Virus genome (UHGV): UHGV-1360403
Source: a virus
Reading direction: 5' to 3' (one strand)
Length of the DNA stretch: 42,236 nt
A model generated the notes under the pieces. That model did not search any database and had not been told where the DNA came from. It saw nothing but the letters and a program-made list of their open reading frames with translations. Positions 5,920-38,006 of the stretch are shown here, piece after piece; the stretch's first letter is position 1, and every line of letters starts with the position of its first letter. The translations under genes and the position numbers were made by a program.

Positions 5920-5937
5920 TTATACGCCTAATCAGTA

Positions 5938-5956
5938 GCCCGGTGTTTAACCGGGC
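5938..5956. terminator. Hairpin between convergent genes (possible bidirectional terminator)
   Basis: GCCCGG-TGTTTAA-CCGGGC inverted repeat; no clear T-tract. Confidence 0.3.
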
Positions 5957-5971
5957 GTCTATGAAGTAGGG

Positions 5972-6520: not shown

Positions 6521-6535
6521 GGGTATTTCCTTAAA

Positions 6536-19980: not shown

Positions 19981-20605
19981 CAGTATCACGGAAATTATTG
20001 AGGCGCTGGAGCGCTACAGTGAAATCATCACCCCCTGGGCGACAAAGGTCGCGGAAAACTTTACCGCCGATATTGTGCGCAAGAATGATGAGCAGTGGCG
20101 TAAACACAGCAAAACCATCAGCCGTGAGCTACGCAATCTGGTAAACAGTGCCCCGCCAGGGCAGGTGATGAAATCCATCGTTGCTGAACAGGTTAAGTAC
20201 ATTAAATCGCTACCCCTCGAGGCGGCTGACAGGGTGTACGACATCCAGAATCGGGCGATTGAAGCTGTTGTGACCGGTGGGAGAGCGGAACATTTTGCTA
20301 AAGAAATAGCCGCATCGGGTGATATAGCAAAGTCCAGAGCTGACCTGATTGCCCGTACTGAACTTGGACGTGCAACCGGCGCGCTGGATCAGGCGCGTGC
20401 GCTGGCAATTGGTTCGAATGGTTATATCTGGCGTACAGCCGAAGATGGTGACGTCAGGCATTCTCATCGGGAAATGGAAGGTAAATTTGTCGAATGGGGC
20501 AAACCTCCAACGCTTGATGGCATGACCGGTCACGCTGGCGAGCTCCCGAATTGCCGCTGTTATAAAGAAATCGTTTTTCCCACCTCCCATTCTTATCCCG
20601 CCTGA
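19832..20605 (+). CDS. Head morphogenesis protein (Mu F / SPP1 gp7-like); start uncertain
   Basis: C-terminal motif ...RHSHREMEGKFVEWGKP...GELPNCRCY typical of Mu F-like minor head proteins; ORF overlaps the portal 3' end by 149 nt. Confidence 0.7.
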   Translation: MPKMKRRPASANLMTNRRNRQAEIRYRTSLRRIARAVGDIVNGHYDGSNDSITEIIEALERYSEIITPWATKVAENFTADIVRKNDEQWRKHSKTISRELRNLVNSAPPGQVMKSIVAEQVKYIKSLPLEAADRVYDIQNRAIEAVVTGGRAEHFAKEIAASGDIAKSRADLIARTELGRATGALDQARALAIGSNGYIWRTAEDGDVRHSHREMEGKFVEWGKPPTLDGMTGHAGELPNCRCYKEIVFPTSHSYPA

Positions 20606-20619
20606 ATCGCAGGTAACAC

Positions 20620-21840: not shown

Positions 21841-21843
21841 AAA

Positions 21844-22350
21844 ATGAATAATGTATTTCTGTACCGGATGCCTGTTGGCATTGCCGGGGCTGTCTCTCGC
21901 CCGCAGGACTTAACCGTCGAACCGGTGGTCCTTAAATCCGATAACGCCTTCGCTGCCTATGGCCTGGCTGGTAAATACGATGATGACGGTTTTTTCGTGC
22001 CGCTGGCAGATGGTGATACCGCAGACAAGGTAAAGGGGATCTACGTGCGCCCTTATCCGACCACGTCGCAGCCGGACATGGTTCGCCAGGTGGGAACAGG
22101 CAAGAACTTCCCGGGCGACGCCATGAAGCGTGGCTACGTGACTGTTAATCTCGGTTCTGATTTTGATGCCAGCACCATCAAAAAAGGCGACCCGGTATAC
22201 GTTGTCGTCTCCACTGATGAATCCATCAAAGTGCCGCTGGGGGGATTCATGTCCACGTCAGTCAGTGGCAAAAATGTGGTGCTGACCAACGCTGAATTCA
22301 CAGGTGCCGGTGATGCTGACGGCAATGCAGAAATTTCCTGGAAGATTTAA
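21844..22350 (+). CDS. Head structural / decoration protein
   Basis: 168 aa directly upstream of the major capsid gene. Confidence 0.45.
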   Translation: MNNVFLYRMPVGIAGAVSRPQDLTVEPVVLKSDNAFAAYGLAGKYDDDGFFVPLADGDTADKVKGIYVRPYPTTSQPDMVRQVGTGKNFPGDAMKRGYVTVNLGSDFDASTIKKGDPVYVVVSTDESIKVPLGGFMSTSVSGKNVVLTNAEFTGAGDADGNAEISWKI

Positions 22351-22361
22351 GGAACAGACGA

Positions 22362-23303
22362 ATGATTACTTTTGATCAGGCAACCGTTGACAGCTCTGGT
22401 GCCTTTCTCATCGGGGAGCTGGAGCGACTCGACCAGACGCTGAACCTGCCACTGGTGGGGTACACCTGGACCCGCGATATTCAGTTGCGTGAAGATGTCT
22501 CTATCGCAGATGACATTTCCAGCTGGACGAATACCAGCTTCGCCGCTGCGGGTACTGGTGCAAATCCGAATGGCAAAAACTGGGTAGGCAAAGACTCAAC
22601 CGCTATTGCTGGCGTGAACGTGGATATCGGCAAATCCGGTAACCCGCTGAACCTGTGGGGGATGGAACTTGGCTGGACGGTCATAGAATTGCAGGCTGCT
22701 CAGCAGGTCGGCCGCCCGATTGATACGCAGAAGTATGACGGTATGCAACTGAAATGGCAGATGGATAACGATGAACAGGTATATGTTGGCGATTCCGCAT
22801 TAAACCTGAAAGGCCTTGTTACCCTGGACGGCGTGCCTGTCAACAACGCTGCCAAAACGTGGGCAACCTCAACACCGGACGAAATCCGCGCAAGCATTAA
22901 CCAGGTGCTGTCTGATGCGTGGGCCGCTTCCGGTTACTCTGTGGTTCCGCGTGATTTGCTGATCCCGCCTGAGCAGTTTGCTCTGTTGTCCAGCATCATC
23001 GTTTCATCTGCGGGTAACCAGTCCCTGTTGACGTATCTTCAGACCAACACCATCAGCTATCACCAGAACGGTGTTCCGCTGAATATCCGCGCGGTTAAAT
23101 GGCTGAAAGGCCGTGGTGTGAGGAAAAAGGATCGCATGGTTGCGTACACCAACGATAAAAAATACGTTCGCTACCCGCTGGTTCCGCTTCAGAGCGTGCC
23201 GGTGCAGTATCGCGGTCTGTATCAGATCGTCACTTACTACGGCAAGCTGGGTGCGGTTGAGCCAGTGTACAAAGAAACCATTTCGTACGTTGATGGCATT
23301 TAA
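22362..23303 (+). CDS. Major capsid protein
   Basis: 313 aa at the expected position in the head module. Confidence 0.65.
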   Translation: MITFDQATVDSSGAFLIGELERLDQTLNLPLVGYTWTRDIQLREDVSIADDISSWTNTSFAAAGTGANPNGKNWVGKDSTAIAGVNVDIGKSGNPLNLWGMELGWTVIELQAAQQVGRPIDTQKYDGMQLKWQMDNDEQVYVGDSALNLKGLVTLDGVPVNNAAKTWATSTPDEIRASINQVLSDAWAASGYSVVPRDLLIPPEQFALLSSIIVSSAGNQSLLTYLQTNTISYHQNGVPLNIRAVKWLKGRGVRKKDRMVAYTNDKKYVRYPLVPLQSVPVQYRGLYQIVTYYGKLGAVEPVYKETISYVDGI

Positions 23304-23344
23304 CAGCCACATGGCCCCCTGGCGGGGCCATTAAGGATGACCCG

Positions 23345-23566
23345 ATGGCAAAAAATAATGCAGTAATACACGTACATACCCCGTTTGTGCTCACGCTTCC
23401 CGACGGTTCACGGCGCGAGTTTGTTAAAGGCCGTCATGCTGTGGAGGAAGACGTTGCCACGCACTGGTTCACTCGTGCGCACGCGGAAGTATCCGTTGGC
23501 AAAGCCACAGACGCGCGTAACGAGGTAAAAAATGCCAAAGAATCAAAATCTGCCAGCGGTAAGTGA
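23345..23566 (+). CDS. Small hypothetical head-module protein
   Basis: 73-aa ORF in the structural operon. Confidence 0.4.
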
Positions 23567-23939
23567 TTTTCGCCGCGACTTCCCGCAGTTTGCTGACCCT
23601 GCCAAATATCCCGAAGCGCAAATCCAGTTTCGTCTGAATCTGGCCGATGAACTGCTGAGCGAAAACGTCACCGGCAAAAAGTTGTTTCCGTATTTTGCCG
23701 GATTGTTCGTTGCACACTACATGACGCTCTGGGCGGCAGACAGCCGGGCGATGCTGGCTGGCGGGCCGGGCGGTTCAACCAATGGTGTTCAGTCCTCAAA
23801 GTCCGTTGACAAGGTAAGCGTCAGCTATGACACCAGCGCGACGCTGAATCCTGATGCAGGTTTCTGGAATAACACCCGATATGGCGCTGAATTTTATCAG
23901 TTGATCACGATGTTCGGTGCAGGCGGTCGCCAGCTATGA
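23532..23939 (+). CDS. Head-tail connector / head completion protein
   Basis: 135 aa between capsid and tail genes. Confidence 0.45.
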
Positions 23940-24490
23940 GTTTCAAAAGCGGTGTAACAACGAGGGTGGATAACGCTAAGGCCATTCTGGATGCGCTCAG
24001 GTCGTTAACCAAAAAAGATGTGCTGGTCGGCATCCCTTCGGAAGACAGCGGGCGGGATGATGTTCCGTTTGGTAATGCGGGCATCGGTTACCTCAACGAA
24101 TACGGCTCACCAGAGCAGAACATCCCGCCACGACCTCACCTGGTCCCCGGCGTTAAATCGGCAGAAGAGCAGACGGTGCCGCAGCTCAAAACCGCGGCGC
24201 AGGCTGCTCTTGATGGTAATGCTGCGGGAGCAGAACGCGCACTCAACCGTGCCGGAACGCTGGCCGCTAATGGCGTCAGGCGTTACATGACTATTACCGG
24301 CTTTACGCCGCTTGCTGACAGCACTGTTGAAGCCCGGGCTCGTCGGGGGCGCAAGGGGGCAACACTGGAACTTGCCCGGCGTGTTGCTGGCGAATCTCCC
24401 GGAACCGATCTGGCGAAACCATTAATTGACACCGGGCAATATCGCAGAGCTATTACCCATGTAGTGAGGGATAAAGATGCCGACTCTTGA
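23936..24490 (+). CDS. Structural protein (head-tail joining), hypothetical
   Basis: Overlapping start/stop with neighbours in the structural operon. Confidence 0.45.
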
Positions 24491-24866
24491 TGTAACAGAT
24501 GTGCTTTTTGACCCCGATTTTTGCGGCTTCAATTTGTGGGTAACACGCCGAGTGCAAACGGTGGATGAGGACGGGATCGGCAGCGACAGTGAAGTTAAAA
24601 AGCAGTTTGCCGGAGTCGTAACTGTTGATCGCTCTCTGGAAAACCGTCGTATGCAGGCCGGGCAGGTAATCAGTGGTGCAATTCTGATTGTGACGACTGA
24701 GCGACTGACACAGGGACAGACTGGCCGTGATGCCGATATCGTGACGTATCAGGGCCGTGATTATCGTGTGACTTTCGTCGACCCGTATACAGCGTATGGT
24801 GCCGGATTCGTTCAGGCGCATTGTGAGTTGATGCCGTTTGATGGGGGAACTCCGGTTGAGCAATAA
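24477..24866 (+). CDS. Structural protein, hypothetical
   Basis: Overlapping start/stop with neighbours in the structural operon. Confidence 0.45.
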   Translation: MPTLDVTDVLFDPDFCGFNLWVTRRVQTVDEDGIGSDSEVKKQFAGVVTVDRSLENRRMQAGQVISGAILIVTTERLTQGQTGRDADIVTYQGRDYRVTFVDPYTAYGAGFVQAHCELMPFDGGTPVEQ

Positions 24867-25404
24867 CACCAGTACAGAGCGCGGATGGTTAATACCAACC
24901 AGTGGCGATCCGGATTATGACGAAGCGCTCGACAGGCTGTTAAGCCAGTGGATGCGTAACGTTTCCGGCCTGTCTGCCGGGATGGTTCGCCCGCGCTGGC
25001 AGAAAGAGCAGCCGCCACTGCTACCGGTTGAAACGAACTGGTGTGCGTTTGGGGTTATCGGATGGTCAGGTGATGACAGTCCGGCATTCACCAGACAGAC
25101 CGATGATGGCTCTCAGCTCTGGCGGCATGAAACGATTGAGTGTATGGCTTCGTTTTATGGACCGGCGGGGATGGTGTATGCGTCCCGGTTTCGTGACGGT
25201 ATATCTGTGCCGCAGAACAATGCAGCACTGAATGCGCTGGGGCTGTCTCTTGGCGATTACACAGGTCTGACTCCCTTCCCTGAACTTATTAATCAGCAAT
25301 GGGTCCGCCGCTACGATATGACGGTGCGCCTGCGCCGGAAGGTTGTGCGCGAGTACGGTATTAAATCGCTGGTGGAAGCACCAGTCATCTTTTTCGGAGA
25401 TTAA
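24838..25404 (+). CDS. Structural protein (tail completion), hypothetical
   Basis: 188 aa immediately upstream of the sheath gene. Confidence 0.45.
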   Translation: MMGELRLSNNTSTERGWLIPTSGDPDYDEALDRLLSQWMRNVSGLSAGMVRPRWQKEQPPLLPVETNWCAFGVIGWSGDDSPAFTRQTDDGSQLWRHETIECMASFYGPAGMVYASRFRDGISVPQNNAALNALGLSLGDYTGLTPFPELINQQWVRRYDMTVRLRRKVVREYGIKSLVEAPVIFFGD

Positions 25405-25407
25405 GCT

Positions 25408-26553
25408 ATGGCACAGGGCTTGCCTGTATCAAACGTTGTTAATGTTGATGTGATCATGTCGCCGCGTGCAGCATCAGGGCGAAATTTTGGTGCATTACTC
25501 ATTCTCGGCCCGTCCACAATCATTCCGGTAAGTGAGCGCATTCGCCGTTATTCTGCCGCGGAAGATATTGGAAAAGATTTTGGCGTGGAATCACCAGAAT
25601 ATAAAGCTGCGCAGGTGTTTTTCTCACAATCACCGAAACCTCAGGAGGTTTTTGTTGGTCGTTGGGTGAAAACGAAGGGAGACAGCGAACAGGCCACGCC
25701 TGAGACGCTGGAGCAGGCTGTGAATGCCATGCTTGATTATACTTCATGGTATGGGCTGGGGATTGCAGACGATGCAGATATTCCGGATGCAGACTGGCTG
25801 AAAGTGGCTGCGGCGATCGAATCCTCTTCTGTAAGCCGTATTCTGGCGATTACGACAAGCGATGAGAAATGCCTGCAGACTGCATCCAGAGATGATTTGG
25901 CATCAAAACTGAAAAGCGCCGGATATTCACGCAGTTTTATACAATATTCATCGGGTAATAAATTCGCTGCGTTATCTGCATTTGGCCGGGCATTCACGGT
26001 TAATTTCAATGGCAGTAATACCGCGATTACGCTCAAGTTTAAGCAGGAGCCGGGTGTCGGGTATGAAACACTGACAGTCAGCCAGGCATCGGCACTTGAT
26101 GCAAAAAACTGCAATGTGTTCGTGTACTACCAGAATGATACAGCTATCCTCCAGCAGGGAGTGATGGCTAACGGCGATTTCTTTGATGAACGCCACGGCC
26201 TGGACTGGTTACAGAATTATGTGCAGACCAACCTCTATAACCTGCTTTATACCAGCACCACGAAGGTTCCCCAGACTGAAGCCGGTATTACCCGACTGTT
26301 ATCAAATGTTGAAAAATCACTGGATCAGGCCGTTCAGAATGGACTGATTGCTCCGGGCGTATGGAACGGTGGCGACCTTGGCCAGTTGTCATCAGGTGAC
26401 ACGCTGCCCAAAGGTTATTACGTATACGCCCAGCCGCTGGATGAACAGGCACAATCAGAACGTGAAGCCCGTAAGGCTCCGGTGATTCAGGCTGCAATAA
26501 AACTTGCAGGCGCGGTTCATTACGCTGACGTACAGATTAACGTTGTTCGCTAA
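25408..26553 (+). CDS. Contractile tail sheath protein (DUF3383-like)
   Basis: 381 aa, followed by the tube gene and a chaperone/tape-measure pair. Confidence 0.7.
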
Positions 26554-26563
26554 GGGGAAGTGA

Positions 26564-27004
26564 ATGTCTACCTATTCTTTTATGGATGTCACTGCGACGC
26601 TGACCGGGCCGACCGGTTCGATTGACCTCGGGTACGGTTCGGCAAGTTCTGAAGAGGGGATTGTGGTTGCGATGGGCGGTCCTAAAAACACCATGACCAT
26701 CGGTGCTGATGGTGAAGTGATGCACAGCCTCCATGCAGATAAAAGCGGGACGATTACCGTTAACCTTCTGAAGACATCACCGACAAATAAAAAATTGTCG
26801 CTGGCGTATAACGCACAGAGCCAGTCTTCTGCCACATGGGGGAATAACGTTATCGTTATCCGCAACAAGGTCAGCGGCGACATCATCACGGCACGCAGTG
26901 TTGCGTTCCAGAAACAACCGGATAACGCCAACGCTAAAACCGGTAATACGATGCCGTGGGTGTTTGACTGCGGCAAGATTGACCAGGTTCTCGGGGAGTT
27001 TTAA
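26564..27004 (+). CDS. Tail tube protein (DUF3277-like)
   Basis: 146 aa between sheath and tail chaperone. Confidence 0.65.
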   Translation: MSTYSFMDVTATLTGPTGSIDLGYGSASSEEGIVVAMGGPKNTMTIGADGEVMHSLHADKSGTITVNLLKTSPTNKKLSLAYNAQSQSSATWGNNVIVIRNKVSGDIITARSVAFQKQPDNANAKTGNTMPWVFDCGKIDQVLGEF

Positions 27005-27007
27005 TGC

Positions 27008-27460
27008 ATGGAATTCGAAATTAAAGGCGTGAAATATCGCACGGCAAAACTCAGCGTTTTTGACCAGCTGAAAGTGACCCGCAAACTTCTGCCGGTGCTG
27101 GCAGGAATGATGTCAGATTTCGGGAGTATTCGCTCCCGTTTGCCTGCTGACGGCAAAATCGACACCGTGAAATTCGAACAGTTAAAACCGGTGTTTGAAA
27201 CCATGCTCCCGCGTATCGCTGAGGAACTGTCTTCCCTGACCGAAGATGACACCGATGCGATTATTCATCCCTGTCTTGCGGTGGTATCGCGGCGTCATAT
27301 GGACGGATGGGTGCCGGTATTTACCCAGGGCGAACTGATGTTTGATGATATTGACTTGCTGGTCATGCTGCAGCTGGTGGCGCGGGTGGTCGCCGATTCG
27401 CTGGGAAATTTTTTGCCTACACCCCTTACCAGCACGACGCAGAGCCTGCAACAGGGCTGA
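27008..27460 (+). CDS. Tail assembly chaperone (G-like, zero-frame product)
   Basis: 150 aa immediately before the tape measure gene; slippery site near its 3' end. Confidence 0.7.
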   Translation: MEFEIKGVKYRTAKLSVFDQLKVTRKLLPVLAGMMSDFGSIRSRLPADGKIDTVKFEQLKPVFETMLPRIAEELSSLTEDDTDAIIHPCLAVVSRRHMDGWVPVFTQGELMFDDIDLLVMLQLVARVVADSLGNFLPTPLTSTTQSLQQG

Positions 27461-27648
27461 CGTTTAACAGCCTGCCGGACGGGCTGTCCTACCTTCTCAA
27501 TCCGGTTGACGCCGGGTTAATTCCTTATACAGCACTTAAAGATGGCTCTGTCGATTTGTATGACATTGCTCTCTTGAATGACCATCTGGCGGTAAAAGCG
27601 GATAACCAGCGACGCATTGAGAAATGGAGAGAGGATAATGAACGCTGA
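27008..27648 (+). CDS. Tail assembly chaperone frameshift fusion (GT-like) via -1 frameshift at 27409-27415
   Basis: Heptamer T_TTT_TTG in the zero frame; -1 frame stays open for 77 codons (AYTPYQHDAEPATGLTFNSLPDGLSYLLNPVDAGLIPYTALKDGSVDLYDIALLNDHLAVKADNQRRIEKWREDNER) ending at 27648. Confidence 0.6.
27409..27415 (+). other. Slippery heptamer for the programmed -1 ribosomal frameshift
   Basis: T TTT TTG read in the chaperone zero frame (codons TTT 27410-12, TTG 27413-15). Confidence 0.55.
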
Positions 27649-29623
27649 AACTATTAAAGATTTCCTCGTCTCGCTTGGCTTCCGTGTGGATGATGCAGGA
27701 GCGAAAAAGTTCGGTTCTGTCCTCGCCGGTACAACTGCAAATGTCATCAAAATGGGGCTGGCTGTTGAAGGGGCTGCGCTGTCCGTGGTGGCCTTCACGG
27801 CTAAGATCGCCTCCGGCCTGGATAATCTTTACTGGGCGTCACAGCGCACCGGCGCGACGGTCCAGGGAATTCAGTCTATTGGCTATGCGGTTTCGCAGGT
27901 TGGCGGCAGTGTGGACGCTGCGCGATCTTCTCTGGAAAGCCTCTCCCGGTTTATTCGTAACAATCCCGGAGCAGAAGGCTTTCTGAATCGCCTGGGCGTA
28001 CAGACCCGTGATGCCAGCGGTAACATGCGTGACATGGCTGCTATCTTTACGGGCGTTGGACAGAAACTCAGCAGCATGCCGTATTACCGGGCTAACCAGT
28101 ATGCGCAGATGCTGGGCATTGACGAAAATACCCTGATGGCTATGCGTCGCGGAGTGGGGCAGTTCAGCGCTCAGTATTCAGAAATGGTGAAAGCGATCGG
28201 ATTTAATGCCGATCAGGCTGCCTTATCGTCAAACCGGTTTATGACCTCGCTGAAATCGCTCGGTGAAATGGCCAGGATGGCGCGGGACAAAATCGGATCG
28301 AATCTTGCGGACGGACTGGCGGGGCAGATTGATAACCTGCGCAAAAAGATAATTGAAAATTTTCCCAAAATTGAAGTCACCATCACAAAGGTCATAAAGG
28401 GGATCCTCTGGCTGGGTGAGATAGTCGGGCGGGTAGCATTTCGGATAGTCGATGGTGTCGGAGATATCATCGAGTGGTGGGGGAAACTGGATGCCGAAAC
28501 GAAAACCCTGATAGAGGTTATCGGCGGTCTGGTTGTCGCCATGCGGATACTTAACTCTACTTTCTGGATGTCACCTATAGGGCTGATTACCGGTCTGATC
28601 GTGGCTCTCGGTCTCTTGTGGGAAGACTACAAAACATGGAAAGAAGGCGGTAACAGTCTTATCGACTGGGAAAAATGGCAACCGGCAATAGATAAAGCGA
28701 AGGATGCGATCACCTGGCTTCGTGATCACCTTCTGGAACTAAAAGATGGTGTTGGCGGCTGGCAAAATGCACTGGAAATCCTTGGTACATTCATCGCGGG
28801 TGTCTGGGTATCCAGGGTTCTGGGGGCTTTCGGGAAAATATCAGGTTTGCCGGTCCCGCCGTGGTTAAAAGGCTGGATGGCTTATGCTGCGTATTTGTAC
28901 TCTGATCGCGAAAATATTGGTGCCAGTGCGAAGTCATCCTGGGATTACACGAAACAAAATATTGGAGATTCATTGCGCTGGCTTGGCATTGATACCGATT
29001 TTGGTCGTAATCCTCATACCGTAAAAGGCGCAAATATTCAGTCAGATATTCCAGGTGCTGAGCCGGAACAATATGCACAGGCTACGAAACGAGGAGAACG
29101 GAATAACAATCCGGGAAACCTTAATTTTGCTGGTCAGGCAGGGGCTTCTCTTGAACGCCCGGGCGGGCGATTTGCCAGATTTGAAACTGCCTTTGATGGA
29201 TTACGGGCTCTTGCTCGTCAGTTAATGCTGTACGCCGGACGGGGAATAAACAGTGTGGAGAAAATTATCTCTACCTGGGCACCTGCGTCTGATAATAACA
29301 ACACAACAGCGTATATCAGGGCTGTATCGCAACGACTGGGAGTGGATCCCCGGGCTGCCCTGAATATGAGCGATCCGCAAACCATGTCAGCATTGATGAG
29401 CAGCATTATCCAGCATGAGAATGGAAGAAATATCTATTCTCGAGAGCTGATTAATAAGGCTGCCGTGGCGGGAATTAGTGGCAAAGTGACAGAGGTTAAC
29501 CAGCAAAATACCTACCACATTTACGGTGGCGGAGATCCGCACGCTGTCGGTAATGAGGTTGCACGTCGGCAACAGTCTGCAAATGCTCAGGTCATGCGAA
29601 GTAATCAGGTGAGGGTGGGTTAG
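27638..29623 (+). CDS. Tail tape measure protein
   Basis: About 660 aa with hydrophobic central segments; ATG at 27638 with SD GAGAGG (the ORF-track start at 27617 is TTG). Confidence 0.8.
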   Translation: MNAETIKDFLVSLGFRVDDAGAKKFGSVLAGTTANVIKMGLAVEGAALSVVAFTAKIASGLDNLYWASQRTGATVQGIQSIGYAVSQVGGSVDAARSSLESLSRFIRNNPGAEGFLNRLGVQTRDASGNMRDMAAIFTGVGQKLSSMPYYRANQYAQMLGIDENTLMAMRRGVGQFSAQYSEMVKAIGFNADQAALSSNRFMTSLKSLGEMARMARDKIGSNLADGLAGQIDNLRKKIIENFPKIEVTITKVIKGILWLGEIVGRVAFRIVDGVGDIIEWWGKLDAETKTLIEVIGGLVVAMRILNSTFWMSPIGLITGLIVALGLLWEDYKTWKEGGNSLIDWEKWQPAIDKAKDAITWLRDHLLELKDGVGGWQNALEILGTFIAGVWVSRVLGAFGKISGLPVPPWLKGWMAYAAYLYSDRENIGASAKSSWDYTKQNIGDSLRWLGIDTDFGRNPHTVKGANIQSDIPGAEPEQYAQATKRGERNNNPGNLNFAGQAGASLERPGGRFARFETAFDGLRALARQLMLYAGRGINSVEKIISTWAPASDNNNTTAYIRAVSQRLGVDPRAALNMSDPQTMSALMSSIIQHENGRNIYSRELINKAAVAGISGKVTEVNQQNTYHIYGGGDPHAVGNEVARRQQSANAQVMRSNQVRVG

Positions 29624-30210
29624 TGGATATTCTCTCTACACTTTTTCATCAGCAGAGCAGAAAAATAGGAATGATTGTTCCCAGTGTTGTTATTTCAGAG
29701 AAGCATACAGATATGCTTGAAATAACAGAGCATCCGGTAGAGGTCGGGGCCGCTGTCGCTGATCATGCCTATAAAAAACCGTCAGAAGTGGTGATGGAGG
29801 TTGGTTTCGCCGGTGGCGGCGCATTGCTGGATTTTGCCAGTAACCTGACGGCTACCAGCCTGCTCGGCCTGAGTCCTCAGCAGACGTATCAGGAGCTACT
29901 GGGTCTGCAGGAAAGCCGTATCCCCTTCGATGTGGTAACCGGTAAACGGCTGTACAGCAACATGTTGATCCGGGCGCTGGAAGTGACGACGGACAAGACA
30001 ACCGAAAACGTCCTGTCCGCCGTCCTCACCCTGAGGGAGGTCATTATCTCCCGGACACAGCAGATTACCGTCGCGGATAAAACCAACATGAAGGAAGGGG
30101 CCAGCACGTCGGCGGTACAGAACAGCGGCAACAAAACCACAAAGCCTCCAGATACTTCACTGCTGAAAAGCATCACGGGTAACGTGGCGTCATTACTGGG
30201 GGGCGGCTAA
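29623..30210 (+). CDS. Baseplate/tail protein, hypothetical
   Basis: 195 aa following the tape measure with overlapping stop/start. Confidence 0.45.
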   Translation: MDILSTLFHQQSRKIGMIVPSVVISEKHTDMLEITEHPVEVGAAVADHAYKKPSEVVMEVGFAGGGALLDFASNLTATSLLGLSPQQTYQELLGLQESRIPFDVVTGKRLYSNMLIRALEVTTDKTTENVLSAVLTLREVIISRTQQITVADKTNMKEGASTSAVQNSGNKTTKPPDTSLLKSITGNVASLLGGG

Positions 30211-30512
30211 TGACAATTCAGGAAATTCCGCTGACAGCGGACAACCAGCAGTTCAGCATCGTCCTGGGTGGTGTCACCTGGCGGATTAGCATCATATGGC
30301 GCGATCTGTACTGGATTATGGACCTGCAGAACGACAGAGGGGAGCCGGTAATCTCCGGTATTCCTCTCGTCACTGGTGCTGACCTGCTGGCGCAGTACGC
30401 CTGTATGGGGCTTGGTTTTAAGCTGGTGGTGGTCTGTGATGACAACACACAGGATTACCCCACAAAAACTGACCTGGGCGGTCGCAGCCATTTACTGGTA
30501 TCAACGGAGTAA
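30210..30512 (+). CDS. Baseplate protein, hypothetical
   Basis: 100 aa, coupled to neighbours. Confidence 0.4.
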   Translation: MTIQEIPLTADNQQFSIVLGGVTWRISIIWRDLYWIMDLQNDRGEPVISGIPLVTGADLLAQYACMGLGFKLVVVCDDNTQDYPTKTDLGGRSHLLVSTE

Positions 30513-30514
30513 GC

Positions 30515-31579
30515 ATGTCACAGAACTGGATGAGACATTTCGAGCTGCAGCTTGTGGACGGGAACGGTCAGGGAATTGAGCTAAGTGATTTCAAAGTCAC
30601 CTTTACGATCGACTGGTTCAACATCAGCAGCGCGTCCCGGGTAGGGACTATCAAAATTTATAACCTCTCGGCAGATACTGTGAACCGAATTACCGGGCAG
30701 GAGTTTTCGAAAGTGCGTCTGATTGCCGGTTACGACGGTATCGCGCCGGAGGTGTCAGCAAGCGACGTAGGGACCGTGCGGGAAGTTGACGCGGCGGACG
30801 TGGGCCAGAGAGATGGCCGCAACTACGGACTGATTTTCAGCGGTGAAATTCGCTACTCGGTCACAGGAAAAGACAGTCCGGTTGATACCTACGTCCTGAT
30901 TCAGGCAGCAGATACTGATCTGGCTTTTGCTACCAGTATAACCTCACAGACGCTGGCTGCCGGTTACACGGTCGCTGATGTGAACCGTGCGCTGATGAAA
31001 GACTTCGAAGCCAAAGGCGCGACCGAAGGCCTGACGCCTGAAATGCCTGCTACTGTATTCCCCCGGGGGCGGGTACTCTTTGGCATGACGCGGCATCTAA
31101 TGGATAACGTAGCCGGACAATGTGGCGCAACATGGCAATTCGTGGACGGTCAGCGCCAGATGGTGGTGAATAACGAATATGTTCACGAAGCGATTGTGCT
31201 CAACAGCGCTACCGGGCTTATTGGAATGCCGCAGCAGACTATCGGTAACGGCGTAAACGTCCGCGCGCTTATTAATCCGAACATCCGGGTTAACGGGCTC
31301 ATTCAGCTGGATCAGGCTTCCGTCTATCGTACCGCGTTGTCGAACAACGATATTGCGATGGCTGGTGGTCAGATCACCGACCAGAACACGGACGGAAATA
31401 TCACGCTCAGCGGCACCACATCGCAGCCTGCCAGCATCGCAACGGATGGCGTTTATATTGTGCGCGGGATTATGTACACTGGCGACACAAGGGGCCAGGC
31501 GTGGTACATGGATATGATGTGTGAAGCGCGTGGCGCGGCGGATCTTGTTTCCTCATCAGCGAGGGAAAGAGGGCTTTAA
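30515..31579 (+). CDS. Baseplate hub-like protein
   Basis: 354 aa at the position of the hub gene in Mu/P2-type baseplate modules. Confidence 0.45.
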   Translation: MSQNWMRHFELQLVDGNGQGIELSDFKVTFTIDWFNISSASRVGTIKIYNLSADTVNRITGQEFSKVRLIAGYDGIAPEVSASDVGTVREVDAADVGQRDGRNYGLIFSGEIRYSVTGKDSPVDTYVLIQAADTDLAFATSITSQTLAAGYTVADVNRALMKDFEAKGATEGLTPEMPATVFPRGRVLFGMTRHLMDNVAGQCGATWQFVDGQRQMVVNNEYVHEAIVLNSATGLIGMPQQTIGNGVNVRALINPNIRVNGLIQLDQASVYRTALSNNDIAMAGGQITDQNTDGNITLSGTTSQPASIATDGVYIVRGIMYTGDTRGQAWYMDMMCEARGAADLVSSSARERGL

Positions 31580-31914
31580 TGAAACGGTTATGTTTGGCGT
31601 TAGTTATGATGGTTACTGCTCCGGCGATGGCTGCAATTCAGTGCGGCAACTACACGATGACCGGTGACGGAATGACTGTTATTAACGGTGAAACTGTCAC
31701 ATCACAGAAGATAAAATTTCTGGGAAAAGATGGTGACTATTCAAACATGAAAATGGACATGGGCCTGATGCCTTCCCGTGATGGTAACAATTACGGCTTT
31801 GAGTTTGTGAAACGTAACGGAAAAGCTTTCCTGAACGTCCAGCTGCTGCAGAACAGCATGGACGCGCCGAAAATCATTGGATCTTTCCCGTGTAAAAAAG
31901 TGAGCAGCAAGTGA
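31579..31914 (+). CDS. Small secreted protein (cargo), cleavable signal peptide
   Basis: MKRLCLALVMMVTAPAMA-AIQCG...: signal peptide with AMA cleavage motif, two Cys in the mature part, no lipobox. Confidence 0.6.
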   Translation: MKRLCLALVMMVTAPAMAAIQCGNYTMTGDGMTVINGETVTSQKIKFLGKDGDYSNMKMDMGLMPSRDGNNYGFEFVKRNGKAFLNVQLLQNSMDAPKIIGSFPCKKVSSK

Positions 31915-32423
31915 CAGTTGATGATGATCCTTTGAATTCATTTCAAGACCCTGACTTTCAGGAACTTCTCGGCGGAATTGATATTACTCTTGTTATAAGG
32001 TTTTTTAATTATTTTTCGCGTTTCGAATATGCGTTAAAAAGAATTAATTTCAAAAAAACTGATCGTAGAAATTATCTAATCGGTGCTGACTGGAGCCGCT
32101 ACGCTACTGATGATACGCGGCCTTTATATCCTACTGGAAATAGAAATGTCGATAGGGCAGTTGAGTATCTATGTCAGCAACCTGTGAAGCAGCAGAGGCA
32201 TGATTTTTCGTGGGAGGATAAACCTCCAATCGAACCTCATTCTCTTGCTGAAGCATTAAAGCAGATCCCGTATATAAGAAATAATCTCTTTCACGGCGGG
32301 AAGTATTTACGTCCCGCCCCCGTTCGTGATGAAAAGTTATTGAAATACTCTATTTATTTGATGCAGTTGTGTTTGATAACTGATAATCAGCTTTCTGAAT
32401 ACTTTAATACTATCCACCGATAG
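31911..32423 (+). CDS. AT-rich cargo protein with HEPN-like R-x4-H motif (170 aa)
   Basis: Motif IRNNLFHGG (R-x4-H) near the C-terminus; GTG start overlaps the upstream stop (GTGA); AT-rich. Confidence 0.5.
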   Translation: MTVDDDPLNSFQDPDFQELLGGIDITLVIRFFNYFSRFEYALKRINFKKTDRRNYLIGADWSRYATDDTRPLYPTGNRNVDRAVEYLCQQPVKQQRHDFSWEDKPPIEPHSLAEALKQIPYIRNNLFHGGKYLRPAPVRDEKLLKYSIYLMQLCLITDNQLSEYFNTIHR

Positions 32424-32443
32424 TCATTCTTCATGAGATAAAA

Positions 32444-32466
32444 CCTGCCACCCGGCGGGTTTTTTG
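32444..32466 (+). terminator. Intrinsic terminator after the cargo pair
   Basis: CCTGCC-ACCC-GGCGGG (one G-U pair) followed by TTTTTT. Confidence 0.55.
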
Positions 32467-32483
32467 CTTTTTGGAGCCTACCA

Positions 32484-33236
32484 ATGGCAGTAACTGACCA
32501 GACCCGCAGTGGCGATCTTGCCGAAACATTTAAATCTGAACGGGAAACAACAAAGAACCAGATCCGTGTCGCCTTGCCTGGCATTATTCAGTCATTCGAT
32601 CCTGACGCGGTGACGGCGGTTGTGCAGCCAGCTATCCGGTCAGTTGAAAAGGATAACGACGGTAACCGCATTACCAAAAATTACCCATTGCTGGTGGATG
32701 TGCCAGTGGTATTCCCGCGCGGCGGAGGCTGTACGTTGACTTTTCCGGTAAAAGCTGGGGATGAGTGTCTTGTCGTTTTTGCCGATCGTTGTATTGATTT
32801 CTGGTGGCAGAGCGGCGGGATACAGGAGACGGTTGATGACAGAATGCATGATTTATCGGATGCGTTTTGTATTGTCGGTCCCCAGTCGCAGGCTAGGAAG
32901 ATTAGCGGTATTAATACCAGTGCCACACAGTTGCGTAGTGACGACGGCAGCACCTATTTTGAGCTTAATCCTGATACCAGGAAAATTAAAATTGTCGCTC
33001 CGGGGGGGCTTGATGTGGTTGCCCCCCTGGCTGATTTTTCTGAGAAAGTAACCATTCATGGCCTGTTAACCTGGATGGGGGGCATGGTGGGGTCTGTGGT
33101 TTCTGGTGTGGCTTCAAAAATCACTGGTGCTGTTGAGTTTTTGGGGAGCGTGAAGGCTAACGGCAAGCCAATCGATGATACGCACACTCATGGTGGTGTT
33201 CAGCGCGGTGGAAGCAGTACCGACGGGGTAAACTGA
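32484..33236 (+). CDS. Baseplate assembly protein V (central spike)
   Basis: 250 aa, Gly-rich C-terminal region (GGVQRGGSSTDGV) as in gpV/Mu gp45-type spikes. Confidence 0.65.
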   Translation: MAVTDQTRSGDLAETFKSERETTKNQIRVALPGIIQSFDPDAVTAVVQPAIRSVEKDNDGNRITKNYPLLVDVPVVFPRGGGCTLTFPVKAGDECLVVFADRCIDFWWQSGGIQETVDDRMHDLSDAFCIVGPQSQARKISGINTSATQLRSDDGSTYFELNPDTRKIKIVAPGGLDVVAPLADFSEKVTIHGLLTWMGGMVGSVVSGVASKITGAVEFLGSVKANGKPIDDTHTHGGVQRGGSSTDGVN

Positions 33237-33589
33237 TGCGATACAGACGTGAAGACGCCGATGGCGATTACACCTTTGGCAGCGGTGATGACACCTGGCT
33301 GATTAACTCACCGGAGGCCGTGGCGCAGGCGGTAAAAACGCGATTCGAATTGTGGTATGGGCAATGGTTTCTCGACACCACCGAGGGGACTCCGTGGATC
33401 CAGTCCGTACTCGGTAAGCAGAAGCCGGAAACCTACAACCTGGCGATCCGTAAGCGCATCCTCGAAACGCAGGGCGTTAAATCAATCCTCTCTTTCAATA
33501 CGACGCTGGATACCACGACCCGACGTGTCATGTTTTCCGCTGAAATCGACACTCTTTATGGAATAACGACTGTTACATCGGAGGCGTAA
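33236..33589 (+). CDS. Baseplate protein (gpW/gp25-like position)
   Basis: 117 aa between V-like and J-like genes. Confidence 0.45.
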   Translation: MRYRREDADGDYTFGSGDDTWLINSPEAVAQAVKTRFELWYGQWFLDTTEGTPWIQSVLGKQKPETYNLAIRKRILETQGVKSILSFNTTLDTTTRRVMFSAEIDTLYGITTVTSEA

Positions 33590-34788
33590 TGGCTCTGAAC
33601 CTTGATTCTCTCGGTTTATCTGCAAAGGTAACCGCGGAGGGGATCAGTGCGCCTGATTATCAGACGATACTCAGCACCCTGATTAGCTATTTTCAGCAGA
33701 TTTATGGCAGTGATGCCTACCTCGAACCGGACAGCAAAGACGGCCAGATGGTGGCTCTGATGGCGCTGGCGATTCATGATGCCAATAATACTGCGATAAC
33801 TGTCTACAACTGTTTTTCACCGGCAACCGGCTATGGGGCTGCACTGACCTGTAACGTGAAAATAAATGGTATTTCACGTAAAGGCGCGACGAACTCTACG
33901 GTTGATTTGCTTCTTACAGGAACTGCCGGAACAACCATCATTAATGGCAGCGTGAAAGACAGTAATAATGTGATATGGCGTTTGCCTGCTTCAGTGGTGG
34001 TAGGCGTGGATGGTACAGTGATGGTGACCGCAACATGTTCCGTCAGTGGTGCAGTGGCGGCGCTGGCTGGAACTATCACTGAAATTAATACGCCAACCCG
34101 TGGCTGGGTTTCGGTAACCAATCCTGCTGCAGCCACTGTGGGCACTCCGGCAGAAACTGACGCTGAGTTACGTATCCGCCAGTCGCAAAGTGTTGCGTTG
34201 CCATCAATAACCCCATTTGAAGCACTGGATGGTGCTGTTTCTAATGTTACCGGTGTAACCCGCCACAAACTCTATGAAAACGATACTGGTTCGGAGGACG
34301 GTAACGGGTTACCGCCACACTCTGTTGCTGTAATTGTGGATGGCGGTGATGTAACGGATATTGCTCAGGCTATCAGAGGGAATAAAGGCCAGGGGACAGC
34401 CACTCACGGTACAACATCCGTTACGGTTCCGGATAAATACGGCAATCCCCATGTAATCAAATTCTCGCGTTCCAGTGATGTGCCTGTTTATGCCCTGATT
34501 AAATTAAAAGTTTTTACGGGTTATACCTCACAGATAGGGCAGCAGATCCAGCAGGCTATTTCCGACTATATCAATAGTCTGATGATTGGTGATTCGGTCC
34601 TTTTAAGTCGCATTTACTCACCGGCGAATCTTGGCGTGGTGAGTGGCGGGAATGCACGCTATTACGATATTCAGGAACTGACGATTGGGAAATCCCCGGG
34701 GGCTTTGTCGTCATCAAACATTGATATCAGATACAACGAATCTGCGTCCTGTACCCCGAAAAATATCGTTATAACGGTGGAGTCATGA
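33589..34788 (+). CDS. Baseplate J-like protein
   Basis: 399 aa at the conserved position and size for baseplate J. Confidence 0.7.
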   Translation: MALNLDSLGLSAKVTAEGISAPDYQTILSTLISYFQQIYGSDAYLEPDSKDGQMVALMALAIHDANNTAITVYNCFSPATGYGAALTCNVKINGISRKGATNSTVDLLLTGTAGTTIINGSVKDSNNVIWRLPASVVVGVDGTVMVTATCSVSGAVAALAGTITEINTPTRGWVSVTNPAAATVGTPAETDAELRIRQSQSVALPSITPFEALDGAVSNVTGVTRHKLYENDTGSEDGNGLPPHSVAVIVDGGDVTDIAQAIRGNKGQGTATHGTTSVTVPDKYGNPHVIKFSRSSDVPVYALIKLKVFTGYTSQIGQQIQQAISDYINSLMIGDSVLLSRIYSPANLGVVSGGNARYYDIQELTIGKSPGALSSSNIDIRYNESASCTPKNIVITVES

Positions 34789-35465
34789 GCAAATACACCG
34801 AACTAATCACGAACTACCACGCCACCAAACCTAAATTTCTTGCGCATGTTGATCTGATGACCCGGCCACTTATTGATGTTGCGGCTGCCACCAGAGGGCT
34901 GATTAGTGCATTTGATATTGACTCTGCGGTTGGTGTGCAACTTGACATCCTTGGATTGTGGATCGGACGTAGCCGTGTTGTCAGCCAGCCTATCTCAGGT
35001 GTCTATTTCAGCTGGGATACCGACGGGCTTGGATATGATCAGGGGGTATGGCAGGGACCATACGATCCTGATTCAGGATACATGTATCTCAGCGATGAAA
35101 CTTATCGTGTCATTCTTAAAGCGAAGATTGCGATTAATAACTGGGACGGACGGAATGATTCGCTTCCGGCAATTCTTGACGCGGCAACAGCAGGATCCGG
35201 GCTGCGAATGCAGATAGTCGATAACCAGGACATGACGATATCGGTCTGGGTCTTTCCTGATACTGATATTTCAGATGTATCGCGTGAGTTAATTGCGGCA
35301 ATTAAACAGGGGTATCTCACAGTAAAAGCCGCCGGGGTATGGGCGGGTGGCATTGAAACACCTTCGGTGGAAACCCCATCGGAAGGCTCAAAATTTTTTG
35401 GTTTTGATATGGATAACGAATTCATCAGTGGTTTTGATGTAGGAGCATGGGGAGTATTACTCTGA
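34785..35465 (+). CDS. Baseplate/tail protein (gpI-like position)
   Basis: 226 aa, coupled to the J-like gene and preceding the tail fibre. Confidence 0.5.
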
Positions 35466-36259
35466 TGGCGAAAAATGACTTTAAAGCGTTTGCAACGGAT
35501 CGAAATGCCAATGTTATATCGCAGGAGGAATGGGAAGCGTTGCCCGCGCTTTTATCTGGATTTACAGCAGGGAAAGCCTCCAGTGCGCAAGTCAATAAGG
35601 TTATTCGGCAGGCCAGCTTTATTGCTGCAGCTCTGGCCCAGTTTGTAAGTGATAAAACGCAACGGGATGTGCTTGATAATGGTGATCTGCCCGGTTTTGT
35701 TGAATTGCTGGGATCGGGGTTTGCTGTTGAATACCTGAGCCGCAAGAATCCGTTTGGCGATATCAAATCGGACGGCACGGTGAAAACAGCTCTCGAAAAC
35801 CTTGGTTTGGGAGAAGGTGCCCCAGCTATTGGCGTTCCGTTCTTCTGGCCGTCCGCTGCAATGCCAAATTCTGTCATCGACAGCTGGTCCGGTATGGTGT
35901 TTTTGAAGTTTAACGGGGCGAAATTTTCTGCCTCTGATTACCCTGTGCTGGCGAAAGTGTTTCCTTCGCTGGTATTACCTGAAGCCCGCGGTGATTTCAT
36001 TCGTATCTGGGATGACGGGCGAGGTGCAGACGGTGGTCGCGAATTATTAAGCTGGCAGGCAGCTACAAACTTTTCTCAGTTTGCCGGGAATATAGGCGAT
36101 GGTGCGGGCCACACAATTAATTTTCATGATGGTATCGCCGGAAATCAGCCAGGATTTTCACGATTTAATTTCACCAGTAACTCTGTGGGTGATGGTGTGA
36201 ATTTTGTTGCCGTCAGACCGCGAAATATTGCATTTAACTTTCTGGTGAGGGCTAAATGA
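35447..36259 (+). CDS. Tail fibre protein (constant N-terminal part to codon 123, then variable C-terminal part Sv in the current orientation)
   Basis: 270 aa; tail-collar-like segment [41 protein letters not shown]; inverted-repeat crossover site inside at 35802-35816. Confidence 0.7.
35802..35816. repeat. Left inverted repeat of the invertible tail-fibre segment
   Basis: TTGGTTTGGGAGAAG; perfect reverse complement at 37611-37625; encodes (N)LGLGE in the fibre. Confidence 0.7.
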
Positions 36260-36852
36260 TGACCCCAATTTTTGATGAAAATGGACTGGCTACAGTGCCG
36301 GGCGATATGCGTTGTTTTTATTATGATGCTGAAACATCTGAGTATACGGGCTGGTCTGATGAATATATTAATACTGGCGTAAGTATGCCCGCCTGTTCCA
36401 CTGGAATTAACCCTGGCGAAAACATTCCGGGAAAAGTGGCTGTATTTACAGGTAAGGGATGGAGCCATGAAGAGGACCATCGCAATGAGACTGTTTACTC
36501 AATCGAAAATGGCGCAGCTGTTACAGTGGATTATATCGGTGCCATCAAAGATGGTTATGTCACGCTTTCACCGTTAACGCCATACGATAAATGGGATGGT
36601 GAGAAATGGGTGACGGATACCGAGGCACAGCATAGCGCCGCAGTAGACGCGTCAGAAGCACAGCGCCAGTCACTGATTGATGCAGCAATGGCTTCCATTA
36701 GTCTGATTCAGCTGAAATTACAAGCCGGGCGGAAACTGACGCAGGCAGAAACAACCCGGCTTAACGCTGTGCTGGATTACATTGACGCGGTGACGGCAAC
36801 AGATACCAGCACCGCGCCGGATGTCATCTGGCCTGAACTGCCGGAGGCGTAG
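36256..36852 (+). CDS. Tail fibre assembly protein (Tfa/U-like)
   Basis: C-terminal ...[26 protein letters not shown] is a typical Tfa signature. Confidence 0.75.
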
Positions 36853-37264
36853 GCCATTCAATATCTGGCGCACCGGAAGTATCGACCAGTTCCAGTGCGT
36901 CCAGATAATCCAGCCACAAATTATATTGCACCAGTTCCTCACCTTTCAGGCGACCAATCGCCGCTTTACCAGGCCATTGCTTACTGTTTATGTATTCGTT
37001 GACCTGATTAATCAATTGCTGCTTTTTCAGTTCGGCTGCGGCAATTTGTTCCTCATGAGTTGGCGGTGGAATATCAATCCATGCAGGCATTCCGTCGATG
37101 ACACCTCTGTATTTTCCTTCTGGTGCTTCCTTCATAAATTCGGCAGCAACAGTGTCGTCAATTTCGATTCCATCATCGGGCCATTCGCCGGATTCCTGAT
37201 AAGCGATTTTAAGCTCCACAGGGAAAAACGCATTTTTATCGGCACTGAAAATATATTTCTGCAT
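36824..37264 (-). CDS. Alternative tail fibre assembly protein (U'-like), inverted orientation
   Basis: C-terminal ...[29 protein letters not shown]; convergent with and overlapping the plus-strand Tfa. Confidence 0.7.
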   Translation of the reverse strand: MQKYIFSADKNAFFPVELKIAYQESGEWPDDGIEIDDTVAAEFMKEAPEGKYRGVIDGMPAWIDIPPPTHEEQIAAAELKKQQLINQVNEYINSKQWPGKAAIGRLKGEELVQYNLWLDYLDALELVDTSGAPDIEWPTPPAVQAR

Positions 37265-37266
37265 TT

Positions 37267-37625
37267 CTACCGTCCTATCGAAATATAACTGAATCTGTAT
37301 TGCTGTGAGATATCACTGGTTGCCACACGCCACGCTGAATTACTGATATGTTCAAAATTTACAGACAAAACCTGCGGGGCAGGATTCGACGGGTCTGACT
37401 GAACGGCATCAGACATAACACTGACTGAAATCATCGGCTGATTAGGGAATGGTATAGGGAAGTGTCCACTGATAAAGCGGGTCGTGTTTCCTGAAAAAGT
37501 GCCAAACTGAACAATATATCCACCTGGTAGCCTGAACCATCCCGAACCAGAAGCGAATGCTCCCATATCCGGTATCTGATTATCTCCTGTGCCCACATTC
37601 CGTTTTGCCGCTTCTCCCAAACCAA
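37267..37625 (-). CDS. Alternative tail-fibre C-terminal cassette (Sv'-like), expressed only after inversion
   Basis: Minus-strand ORF reads ...INVGLGEAAKRNVGTGDNQ... through the right inverted repeat, sharing GLGE with the fibre at the crossover; the upstream ATG (37665) is probably fortuitous. Confidence 0.55.
37611..37625. repeat. Right inverted repeat of the invertible tail-fibre segment
   Basis: CTTCTCCCAAACCAA, reverse complement of 35802-35816; flanks agree at 5 of 7 further positions. Confidence 0.7.
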
Positions 37626-37691
37626 CGTTTATGAAAATGCAGAAATAACGAGCAAATGGCATCATTCCTGCTTTTGTCAGAGGGATCCACT

Positions 37692-38006
37692 ATGCTTATT
37701 GGCTATGTACGTGTGTCAACAAATGACCAGAACACAGATCTACAACGTAATGCGCTGAACTGTGCAGGATGCGAGCTGTTTTTTGAAGACAAGATAAGCG
37801 GTACAAAGTCCGAAAGGCCGGGACTGAAAAAACTGCTCAGGACATTATCGGCAGGTGACACTCTGGTTGTCTGGAAGCTGGATCGGCTGGGGCGCAGTGT
37901 GCGGCATCTTGTCGTGCTGGTGGAGGAGTTGTGCGAACAAGGTGTTAATTTTAGTAGTTATGTTATTACAGGTGGGGGATTTCTCCCCCTTATGCAGATT
38001 TTCTAG
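37692..38006 (+). pseudogene. Serine DNA invertase (Gin/Hin/Pin/Cin family), 3'-truncated
   Basis: MLIGYVRVSTNDQNTDLQRNAL...DTLVVWKLDRLGRS...GVNF matches the catalytic domain of Gin-type invertases; similarity stops near 37952 and the ORF ends after an unrelated 17-aa tail; no C-terminal HTH. Confidence 0.75.
37974..37989. repeat. Short GC hairpin at the junction between the invertase remnant and the low-GC island
   Basis: GGGGGA-TTTC-TCCCCC. Confidence 0.4.

Follow-up and report, generated by a model that had tools for sequence, protein, structure and literature searches.

UHGV-1360403, a virus genome of 42,236 nucleotides (nt) that we refer to as the window, is an essentially complete genome of a temperate myophage, and our analysis concerns the slot between its baseplate hub gene and its gpV-type spike gene. 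Two small genes lie there: gene A, encoding a predicted exported protein of 111 amino acids (aa), and gene B, encoding a 170-aa protein that probably belongs to the HEPN superfamily. The window is 100% identical over the examined region to Escherichia phages vB_EcoM-689R2, -606R2 and -611R5, and is related to Salmonella phage SEN34 (genus Brunovirus), Yersinia phage YP3 and Klebsiella phage Mulock; it represents a SEN34/Brunovirus-like temperate myophage of E. coli. Its genes follow the order tape measure, Dit-like, Pam3-gp18-type plug, E217-gp41-type hub, A, B, gpV-type spike, sheath-initiator/gp25-like, baseplate J and wedge (Table 1). A sequence-only reading of this DNA had described A and B as a two-gene cargo cassette, a secreted protein paired with a protein bearing the catalytic motif of HEPN RNases, and several elements of that description hold. 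Both open reading frames (ORFs) and their GTGA overlap at 31911-31914 are present as described, the flanking hub-like and V spike genes are supported by phrog and Pfam matches, neither A nor B looks like a part of the virion, and the G+C content of B (38%, against 53-57% in the flanking baseplate genes, with A at 45% and the window at 49%) bears out its portrayal as AT-rich foreign cargo. The literature yielded nothing specific on this phage group and its hub-spike slot.

We compiled a catalogue of 83 loci, drawing on 80 IMG/VR loci with hub proteins at least 96% identical to that of the window, the SEN34, YP3 and Mulock relatives and four E. coli chromosomal examples, and surveyed 5,426 complete E. 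coli genomes with megablast. Across the catalogue the gap between hub and spike genes ranges from 396 to 1861 bp and is filled in 20 architectures; A is present in 77 of the 83 loci and B in only three, namely those of the window, of a contig identical to it and of a prophage in Pantoea. Of the 5,426 E. coli genomes, 307 match the region at least in part, and only 25 carry A and B together. In E. coli genomes with different cargo, megablast homology ends at approximately 31898-31901, about 10-15 nt before the stop codon of A, and restarts at approximately 32427-32441, in the first bases of a hairpin that precedes the spike gene. As these breakpoints fall at the 3′ end of A and at the hairpin, the variable segment of the window phage (approximately 31902-32439) consists of gene B and nothing else. 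SEN34, YP3 and Mulock each carry an A homologue (53-70% identical, phrog_3443) behind the hub gene, followed by a gene that is unrelated in each and always AT-rich. The alternative cargo includes a YafO-toxin module, a DUF4282 protein, a DUF2335 membrane protein, lipoproteins and several secreted or membrane proteins.

B displays features of a phage moron, namely low G+C content, presence or absence among near-identical phages and a fixed site between conserved genes. We consider it very likely that the hub-spike junction is a cargo (moron) hotspot with fixed edges and that A and B are not a pair. The notion of a two-gene cassette, or of a toxin with its partner, did not survive this comparison, given that A stands beside some 20 different neighbour contents and that the B family occurs without A in hundreds of genomes of many phyla. 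Nor is A itself variable cargo, as the cassette would have it; almost every locus has it, as an accessory gene whose translation is coupled to that of the hub gene. The sequence-only reading had expected related phages to reveal an insertion between hub and spike; B is indeed not conserved in them, but A is, and because A carries a signal peptide we do not regard it as a part of the baseplate. We propose that recombination would swap unrelated cargo between the fixed edges of the slot, the left edge being the 3′ end of A, or of the hub gene where A has been replaced, and the right edge being the hairpin.

The hairpin folds with a z-score of -3.0, and no other terminator-like site on the + strand of the 20-kb late region (18001-38000) is as strong. 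When all loci were aligned upstream of the spike gene, sequence similarity started exactly at the hairpin, and the 75 nt before the spike contain an identical GC hairpin, T-run and ribosome-binding site (AACCCGCC-loop-GGCGGGTTTTTTGCTTTCTGGAGCC) in approximately 80 of the 83 loci, whatever the cargo. The intrinsic terminator that had been assigned to the cassette is thus real as a hairpin with a T-run, but it does not belong to the cassette, and a role as B's own terminator is ruled out, as the structure is common to every cargo type. It is missing from two loci that hold A only, which fits the classical moron picture of a terminator that came with cargo and later served as an anchor.

The layout of the slot also bears on expression. 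The TAATG overlap implies translation of A together with the hub operon, and B, lying upstream of the conserved terminator, should be transcribed with the same operon. The roughly 20 nt between the hairpin and the spike ATG leave no room for a promoter, so late transcription of the spike, wedge and fibre genes must read through the hairpin. A promoter scan found no convincing sigma-70 promoter for B (the best site, with 9/12 matches, lies at 31688-31717 inside A and is not above chance), although in so AT-rich a region a simple scan of this kind is weak evidence that a promoter is absent. The sequence-only reading had deduced expression during lytic growth from placement in the late operon, by comparison with lambda bor and lom; we find that the timing is not inferable from this placement, and bor and lom are known for expression from the prophage, not specifically for lytic growth. 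When the whole window was scanned against Rfam, no match emerged.

Other occupants of the slot show what it can hold. The commonest cargo, found in 39 of the 83 loci, is a two-gene module encoding a 266-276-aa protein and a 153-aa protein (positions 5433-6647 of locus L018, with equivalents in L026 and L083). The larger protein exists in two unrelated versions, one of which has a weak TPR match, and the 153-aa protein has no similarity to Pfam, the PDB or the B family; the module may be another defence pair. An hhalign comparison of the B-family profile with the commonest other cargo protein (C1) likewise indicated no relationship. Some E. coli prophages carry a 190-aa protein and a YafO-family toxin (Pfam YafO_toxin, 4e-17) in the slot (L015, 2012-3002), which adds a toxin-type gene, perhaps with its partner, to the range of alternative cargo. 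In the six loci without A, the first gene behind the hub encodes either a lipoprotein (four of 83; L014, 1683-2408) with the lipobox LFLTSC and the PGAP label 'HMG-box', or a 158-aa secreted protein (two of 83; L066, 5056-5532). A, the lipoprotein and the 158-aa protein are mutually non-homologous; since all six replacements are lipoproteins or secreted proteins, the first position of the slot always holds a gene for an exported protein.

Table 1. Coordinates of the hub-spike slot, its contents and its flanking genes in the window.
Feature	Coordinates	Strand	Basis
Baseplate hub gene, 354 aa, left anchor of the slot	30515..31579	+	phrog_196 baseplate hub, E=2e-88; Pfam E217_GP41, E=5e-5, under curated cut-off
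TAATG, hub stop codon overlapping A start codon by one base	31577..31581	+	direct sequence reading
Gene A, 111 aa, phrog_3443 family, near-constant slot resident	31579..31914	+	phrog_3443, E=3e-53
Predicted signal peptide of A, MKRLCLALVMMVTAPAMA, cleavage after AMA	31579..31632	+	basic n-region, hydrophobic core, small-x-small site
Variable cargo segment of the slot, a very likely hotspot (gene B alone in the window phage)	31902..32439	+	megablast breakpoints, gap-size variation
Gene B, 170 aa, stand-alone HEPN-like protein, putative metal-independent RNase	31911..32423	+	GTG start overlapping TGA of A (GTGA, 31911-31914)
E39-Y-A-L-K43, probable second HEPN motif (E-x3-[KR]), in FSRFEYALK	32025..32039	+	E39 invariant, K43 at least 90% in 145 members; predicted helix 25-44
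R123-N-N-L-F-H128-G-G, R-x4-H motif, polar residue after R	32277..32300	+	R123, H128, G129 invariant in 145 members
Intrinsic-terminator-like hairpin + T-run, right boundary of the slot, ~20 nt before spike ATG	32440..32473 (hairpin 32440-32463)	+	10-bp stem, 4-nt loop
gpV-type membrane-puncturing spike gene, right anchor of the slot	32484..33236	+	Pfam N-terminal spike domain, E=5e-44; Apex motif

We then turn to gene B itself. Its GTG start is supported by homologues that begin at the equivalent position (MTEV..DPLDSF). A first search recovered 27 homologues, and an alignment of 145 divergent family members, 25-55% identical to B, was used to assess conservation. E39, R123, H128 and G129 are invariant in the 145 members (R123 and H128 also in a 25-member alignment), and F35, R37, K43, W61, P91, P92, Q95, W101, N124, N125, L126, F127, G130, K131 and R139 are conserved in at least 90% of them. 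An R-x4-H motif is common in itself, occurring in 7 of the 44 proteins of the window phage (R-x4-6-H in 13 of 44); that of B carries weight because it is invariant across 145 divergent homologues, and not by its mere presence. The published definition of HEPN describes an R-x4-6-H motif with a polar residue (N, D or H) after the arginine, often together with an upstream acidic residue as E-x3-[KR], and places R-x4-6-H where helix 3 ends and the loop towards helix 4 begins (PMC3710099). B matches this description with its R-x4-H, the N after R, the E-x3-K and a motif that runs from a helix end into a loop. In the AlphaFold model of B (predicted local distance difference test, pLDDT, 91.4), helix 112-127 is followed by loop 128-136 and helix 137-157; R123 sits in the last turn of the first helix and H128 is the first residue of the loop. 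What the sequence-only reading had picked out as a HEPN catalytic signature is therefore a genuine HEPN-type signature, in view of its invariance, its structural position and the accompanying E-x3-K.

Searches beyond the family gave matches of low significance. The B-family profile weakly matched (E=0.027) the RN..AHGG region of a PDB chain annotated as a 'CRISPR-associated protein' (8y7f), a region that we take to be the HEPN motif of that chain. Of the six Pfam families with sub-threshold matches to two or more of the 145 members, three are HEPN families: Abi_2, the most frequent with four members (best E=0.027), HEPN_Apea (0.0075) and HEPN_Swt1 (0.044). B itself had no match in Pfam or NCBIfam at E<=1, nothing significant in a PDB sequence search and no match when its model was compared with the PDB by Foldseek. 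The sequence-only reading had looked to family and structure searches for a HEPN fold; no curated HEPN family or Foldseek match was obtained, and the placement of the motif in the model agrees with a HEPN protein. We conclude that B very probably belongs to the HEPN superfamily, and that it stands outside all curated HEPN families of Pfam and NCBIfam.

The B family extends far beyond phages. A profile search of 1.84 billion cluster representatives retrieved 2,392 B-family representatives at E<=1e-3, nearly all of them stand-alone proteins of approximately 165 aa, and at least 415 genomic copies were found in Proteobacteria, Bacteroidota, Planctomycetota, Verrucomicrobiota, Chloroflexota, Acidobacteriota and a methanogen metagenome-assembled genome. 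Members of the enterobacterial clade, 49-75% identical, always occupy the same slot directly behind an A-type gene, and the codons of the two genes overlap or nearly abut in most of these loci (the window, L179, L180 and L182). Elsewhere, one homologue (P0015) lies on an integrative element between an AbiV-type HEPN (HEPN_AbiV) gene and TIR, RNase T and Mrr/DEAD genes, another (P0022) adjoins a STAND NTPase gene, and a third (P0016) is preceded by genes for an HTH_3 regulator and a Peptidase_M78 (ImmA/IrrE-type) protein. Such an arrangement, in which a distant B homologue completes an apparent three-gene operon, stands at L005 (5101-6513), L006 and L007; protease-controlled toxin or defence modules have this layout, but it is not general for the B family. 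Among 106 immediate neighbours of B-family genes in 78 genomes, there was no shared family and no constant partner. Recurring neighbours in these genomes are type I restriction-modification specificity subunits, integrases, transposases and Abi_C, with single TIR and SIR2 proteins, and no nucleotidyltransferase family is among the 25 most frequent of the 61 neighbour families. The context of the B family is that of a stand-alone effector travelling with defence and mobile genes.

Individual members of the family are informative in other ways. A few are fused to DUF6884 (e.g., P0047, 332 aa, and P0055, 650 aa), a nucleic-acid-binding domain with a YaaA-like fold that has been proposed to bind damaged DNA or DNA-RNA hybrids (PMC11701544); DUF6884 may be a sensor domain joined to a HEPN effector. 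In Klebsiella phage ST101-KPC2phi6.1, a 30%-identical B-family gene (L178, 3971-4489) follows head and tail-completion genes and adjoins a divergent helix-turn-helix gene; as this is a different type of phage, the B family has entered phages more than once. A contig labelled Chryseobacterium sp. 18061 (L097) carries an enterobacterial-type baseplate region with plug, hub, A and a 53%-identical B homologue, followed by ORFs assigned by size and order as spike-position, gp25-size and baseplate-J-size; its label possibly reflects mislabelling, contamination or an unexpected host range.

Gene A is a resident of a different kind. Its product begins with MKR, LCLALVMMVTAP and AMA|A and has no lipobox, and signal-peptide features were retained in 37 of 38 A homologues according to a simple heuristic, despite variable sequence in this part of the protein; the signal peptide claimed by the sequence-only reading is upheld to that extent, and A is a predicted Sec-exported protein processed by signal peptidase I. 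The mature protein is strongly conserved with C22 and C105 invariant, and the AlphaFold2 model (pLDDT 76) is beta-rich with residues 2-23 as a lone helix, such that A is probably a small beta-rich protein with one disulfide. Searches for A found no informative fold match, no PDB sequence match and no match in PADLOC-DB 2.0.0 even at E<=10. Homologues of A form 410 clusters, and all of those listed are from Enterobacterales. T5 Llp and phi80/N15 Cor are small exported superinfection-exclusion lipoproteins encoded beside tail genes, and A resembles them in being a small exported protein encoded within or beside tail or receptor-binding genes. It differs from them in its signal-peptidase-I type site and lack of a lipobox, and shares no sequence or fold similarity with them. 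A periplasmic role in superinfection exclusion or envelope modification would be our guess. In an apparently decayed prophage, one A homologue persists by itself, with an integrase fragment and an IS1 transposase as neighbours (L183, 4001-4354), which hints at a benefit of A to the host.

The closest functional precedent for B is HepS, the solo HEPN abortive-infection protein of Salmonella prophage Gifsy-1. It is expressed constitutively and causes no toxicity on over-expression; siphophage tail-tip proteins activate it, and it then cuts tRNAs in their anticodon loops (PMC13043305). B and HepS are both small, stand-alone, single-gene HEPN-type proteins with a canonical R-x4-H, both are accessory cargo on temperate enterobacterial phages, and neither has a co-occurring partner or inhibitor gene. 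They appear unrelated in sequence, no HepS-like chain having surfaced in the PDB sequence or Foldseek searches with B; the LT2 Gifsy-1 record contains no ORF with R100/H105, as hepS resides in the Gifsy-1 of strain 14028. B also lies within a myophage baseplate operon, and the trigger (tail tip protein J), tetramer state and tRNA anticodon targets are established for HepS only. Tha, a tail-activated HEPN protein of S. aureus prophages, has an overlapping antisense inhibitor gene, ith (PMC11087260). Like Tha, B is a prophage-borne HEPN-type protein that would face the problem of self-targeting upon prophage induction; unlike it, B contains no conserved antisense ORF, so that an inhibitor arranged as in Tha/Ith is ruled out, and host, protein family and genomic position differ.

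Known families and hotspots offer further points of comparison. Compared with HepT of the HEPN/MNT type II/VII toxin-antitoxin systems (HepT/MntA, e.g., SO_3166, PDB 5yep, 7ae2 and 8xdj), B has no adjacent MNT gene, its neighbours being A and the spike gene; it does not have the R-x4-H-x-Y form, and an insert of approximately 65 residues separates its E-x3-K helix from its R-x4-H helix. The lactococcal proteins AbiD/AbiF (Pfam Abi_2), AbiV and AbiU2 are, like B, stand-alone, and are HEPN effectors of abortive infection on mobile elements; membership of B among them is unsupported, as its family's matches fall far below the gathering score (best E=0.027) and the AbiV-type hhalign comparison gave nothing. 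As for the slot, it resembles the lambdoid morons (HK97 gp15, lambda bor/lom) in holding AT-rich foreign genes between conserved late genes, with an intrinsic terminator and variation among near-identical phages, and the P2-like prophage defence hotspots (PMC9122126) in counting defence or toxin genes, here the YafO module, among its alternatives. It differs from both in lineage and position (the hub-spike junction of SEN34-like phages), in the exported first gene and in that no moron promoter was detected for B. Prophage-borne single-gene HEPN effectors and moron hotspots are already known kinds; for the B family no curated model or description was found.

The explanation that best accommodates these results is that B is a stand-alone HEPN cargo gene with a role in defence. 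The R123/H128 motifs of two B protomers would come together, with the help of N124 and E39, to form a composite, metal-independent RNase site, silent before an infection cue arrives; B would then cleave tRNA, rRNA or mRNA and halt translation, and a competing phage would fail to complete its growth in the lysogen, as described for HepS of Gifsy-1. The RNase activity, dimerisation, trigger, defence phenotype and expression timing in this scheme are inferred by analogy with the HEPN superfamily. We assign the package as a whole, a hotspot with B as solo HEPN abortive-infection cargo and A not its partner, a probability of roughly 0.55; the anti-phage abortive-infection role of B, considered by itself, is somewhat favoured. 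Several observations weigh against this interpretation and call for caution. No curated HEPN model was significant for any of the 145 B-family members, hhalign found nothing between the B-family profile and one AbiV-type HEPN sequence, and PADLOC-DB 2.0.0 contains no model matching B even at E<=10. B may also be made only late in the phage's own lytic cycle, given the lack of a standout sigma-70-like promoter and the overlaps of B with A and of A with the hub gene, and this would be a poor fit for a gene that protects the lysogen. The constant adjacency of A and B in the enterobacterial clade, finally, leaves room for a functional link with A.

One may postulate, then, that A and B form a single two-component system in which the exported protein works with, or controls, a cytoplasmic HEPN RNase. 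B does lie directly behind an A-type gene in every enterobacterial B locus, even though the B proteins have diverged to 49-75% identity, but this adjacency follows from the layout of the slot, and several findings render the pairing very improbable: only three of the 77 loci with A also contain B, the others holding some 20 different contents; A is 97-99% identical beside different cargo; a recombination junction falls at the 3′ end of A; B-family genes number at least 415 in genomes of many phyla, outside any phage of this type and with no neighbour in common, while the listed A homologues are all from Enterobacterales; and the two proteins would occupy different compartments. An alternative scenario in which B serves the phage as a late RNase, through shutoff of host translation or RNA, processing of phage transcripts or disarming of a host RNA-based defence, would account for its co-orientation with the late operon, its codon overlap, its want of a convincing promoter of its own and its transcription with the hub operon. 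We consider this unlikely, because presence in only three of 83 close relatives indicates that B is dispensable for the lytic cycle; its distant homologues, moreover, are chromosomal and lie in defence islands or under XRE/ImmA-type control rather than in phage late operons.

Many HEPN toxins are neutralised by a partner, as in HepT/MntA and RnlA/RnlB. Such precedents, together with the inhibition of Tha by an overlapping antisense gene (PMC11087260), would favour B as the toxin of a toxin-antitoxin pair with an unrecognised antitoxin, be it an antisense RNA, a small antisense protein or a host nucleotidyltransferase, and antisense ORFs are indeed present at 31741-31941, 32131-32256 and 32387-32584. 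The ORF that lies wholly within B (32131-32256), however, has no counterpart in five other B loci, and the similarity of the other two is a shadow of the conserved A and spike coding sequences; neighbours are not conserved across 78 genomes, no MNT gene is adjacent, and HepS is an example of a solo HEPN protein that needs no partner to stay inactive (PMC13043305), all of which makes this pairing quite improbable. It is rather unlikely, too, that B is no HEPN enzyme, i.e., that a helical bundle acquired a convergent R-x4-H and has a non-nuclease role such as binding or regulation; the absence of any significant curated HEPN match would suit this view, and the invariant R-x4-H at the expected helix end, with its accompanying E-x3-K, argues for a HEPN enzyme. 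A bolder version of the defence interpretation can also be stated, which we regard as doubtful in its entirety: B would found an unnamed, very widespread solo HEPN family (approximately 2,400 clusters at 50% identity, from Proteobacteria to Chloroflexota, with at least one archaeon) that constitutes a new single-gene anti-phage system, the slot would obey a previously undescribed rule whereby its first gene always encodes an exported protein, the periplasmic action of that protein would be directed at incoming tails with the same baseplate type, and the hairpin would be both a transcriptional insulator and a recombination anchor that allows cassette-like exchange of cargo.

With B read as solo HEPN cargo of a hotspot, the locus has implications at several levels. 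The highly conserved, exported A is a clean knockout target, and a conserved terminator 20 nt before essential baseplate genes raises the concrete regulatory question of how transcription passes it. With its two sharp, conserved edges and at least 20 contents, one of them a toxin module, the hotspot offers a practical site at which to mine defence or competition genes from common prophages of E. coli, Klebsiella and Salmonella. A model for the B family would improve defence annotation, as Pfam, NCBIfam and PADLOC hold none. Single-protein HEPN immune effectors form a class that has only recently been characterised mechanistically, via HepS and Tha; if B is active, a large, taxonomically broad and so far unannotated family would join them.

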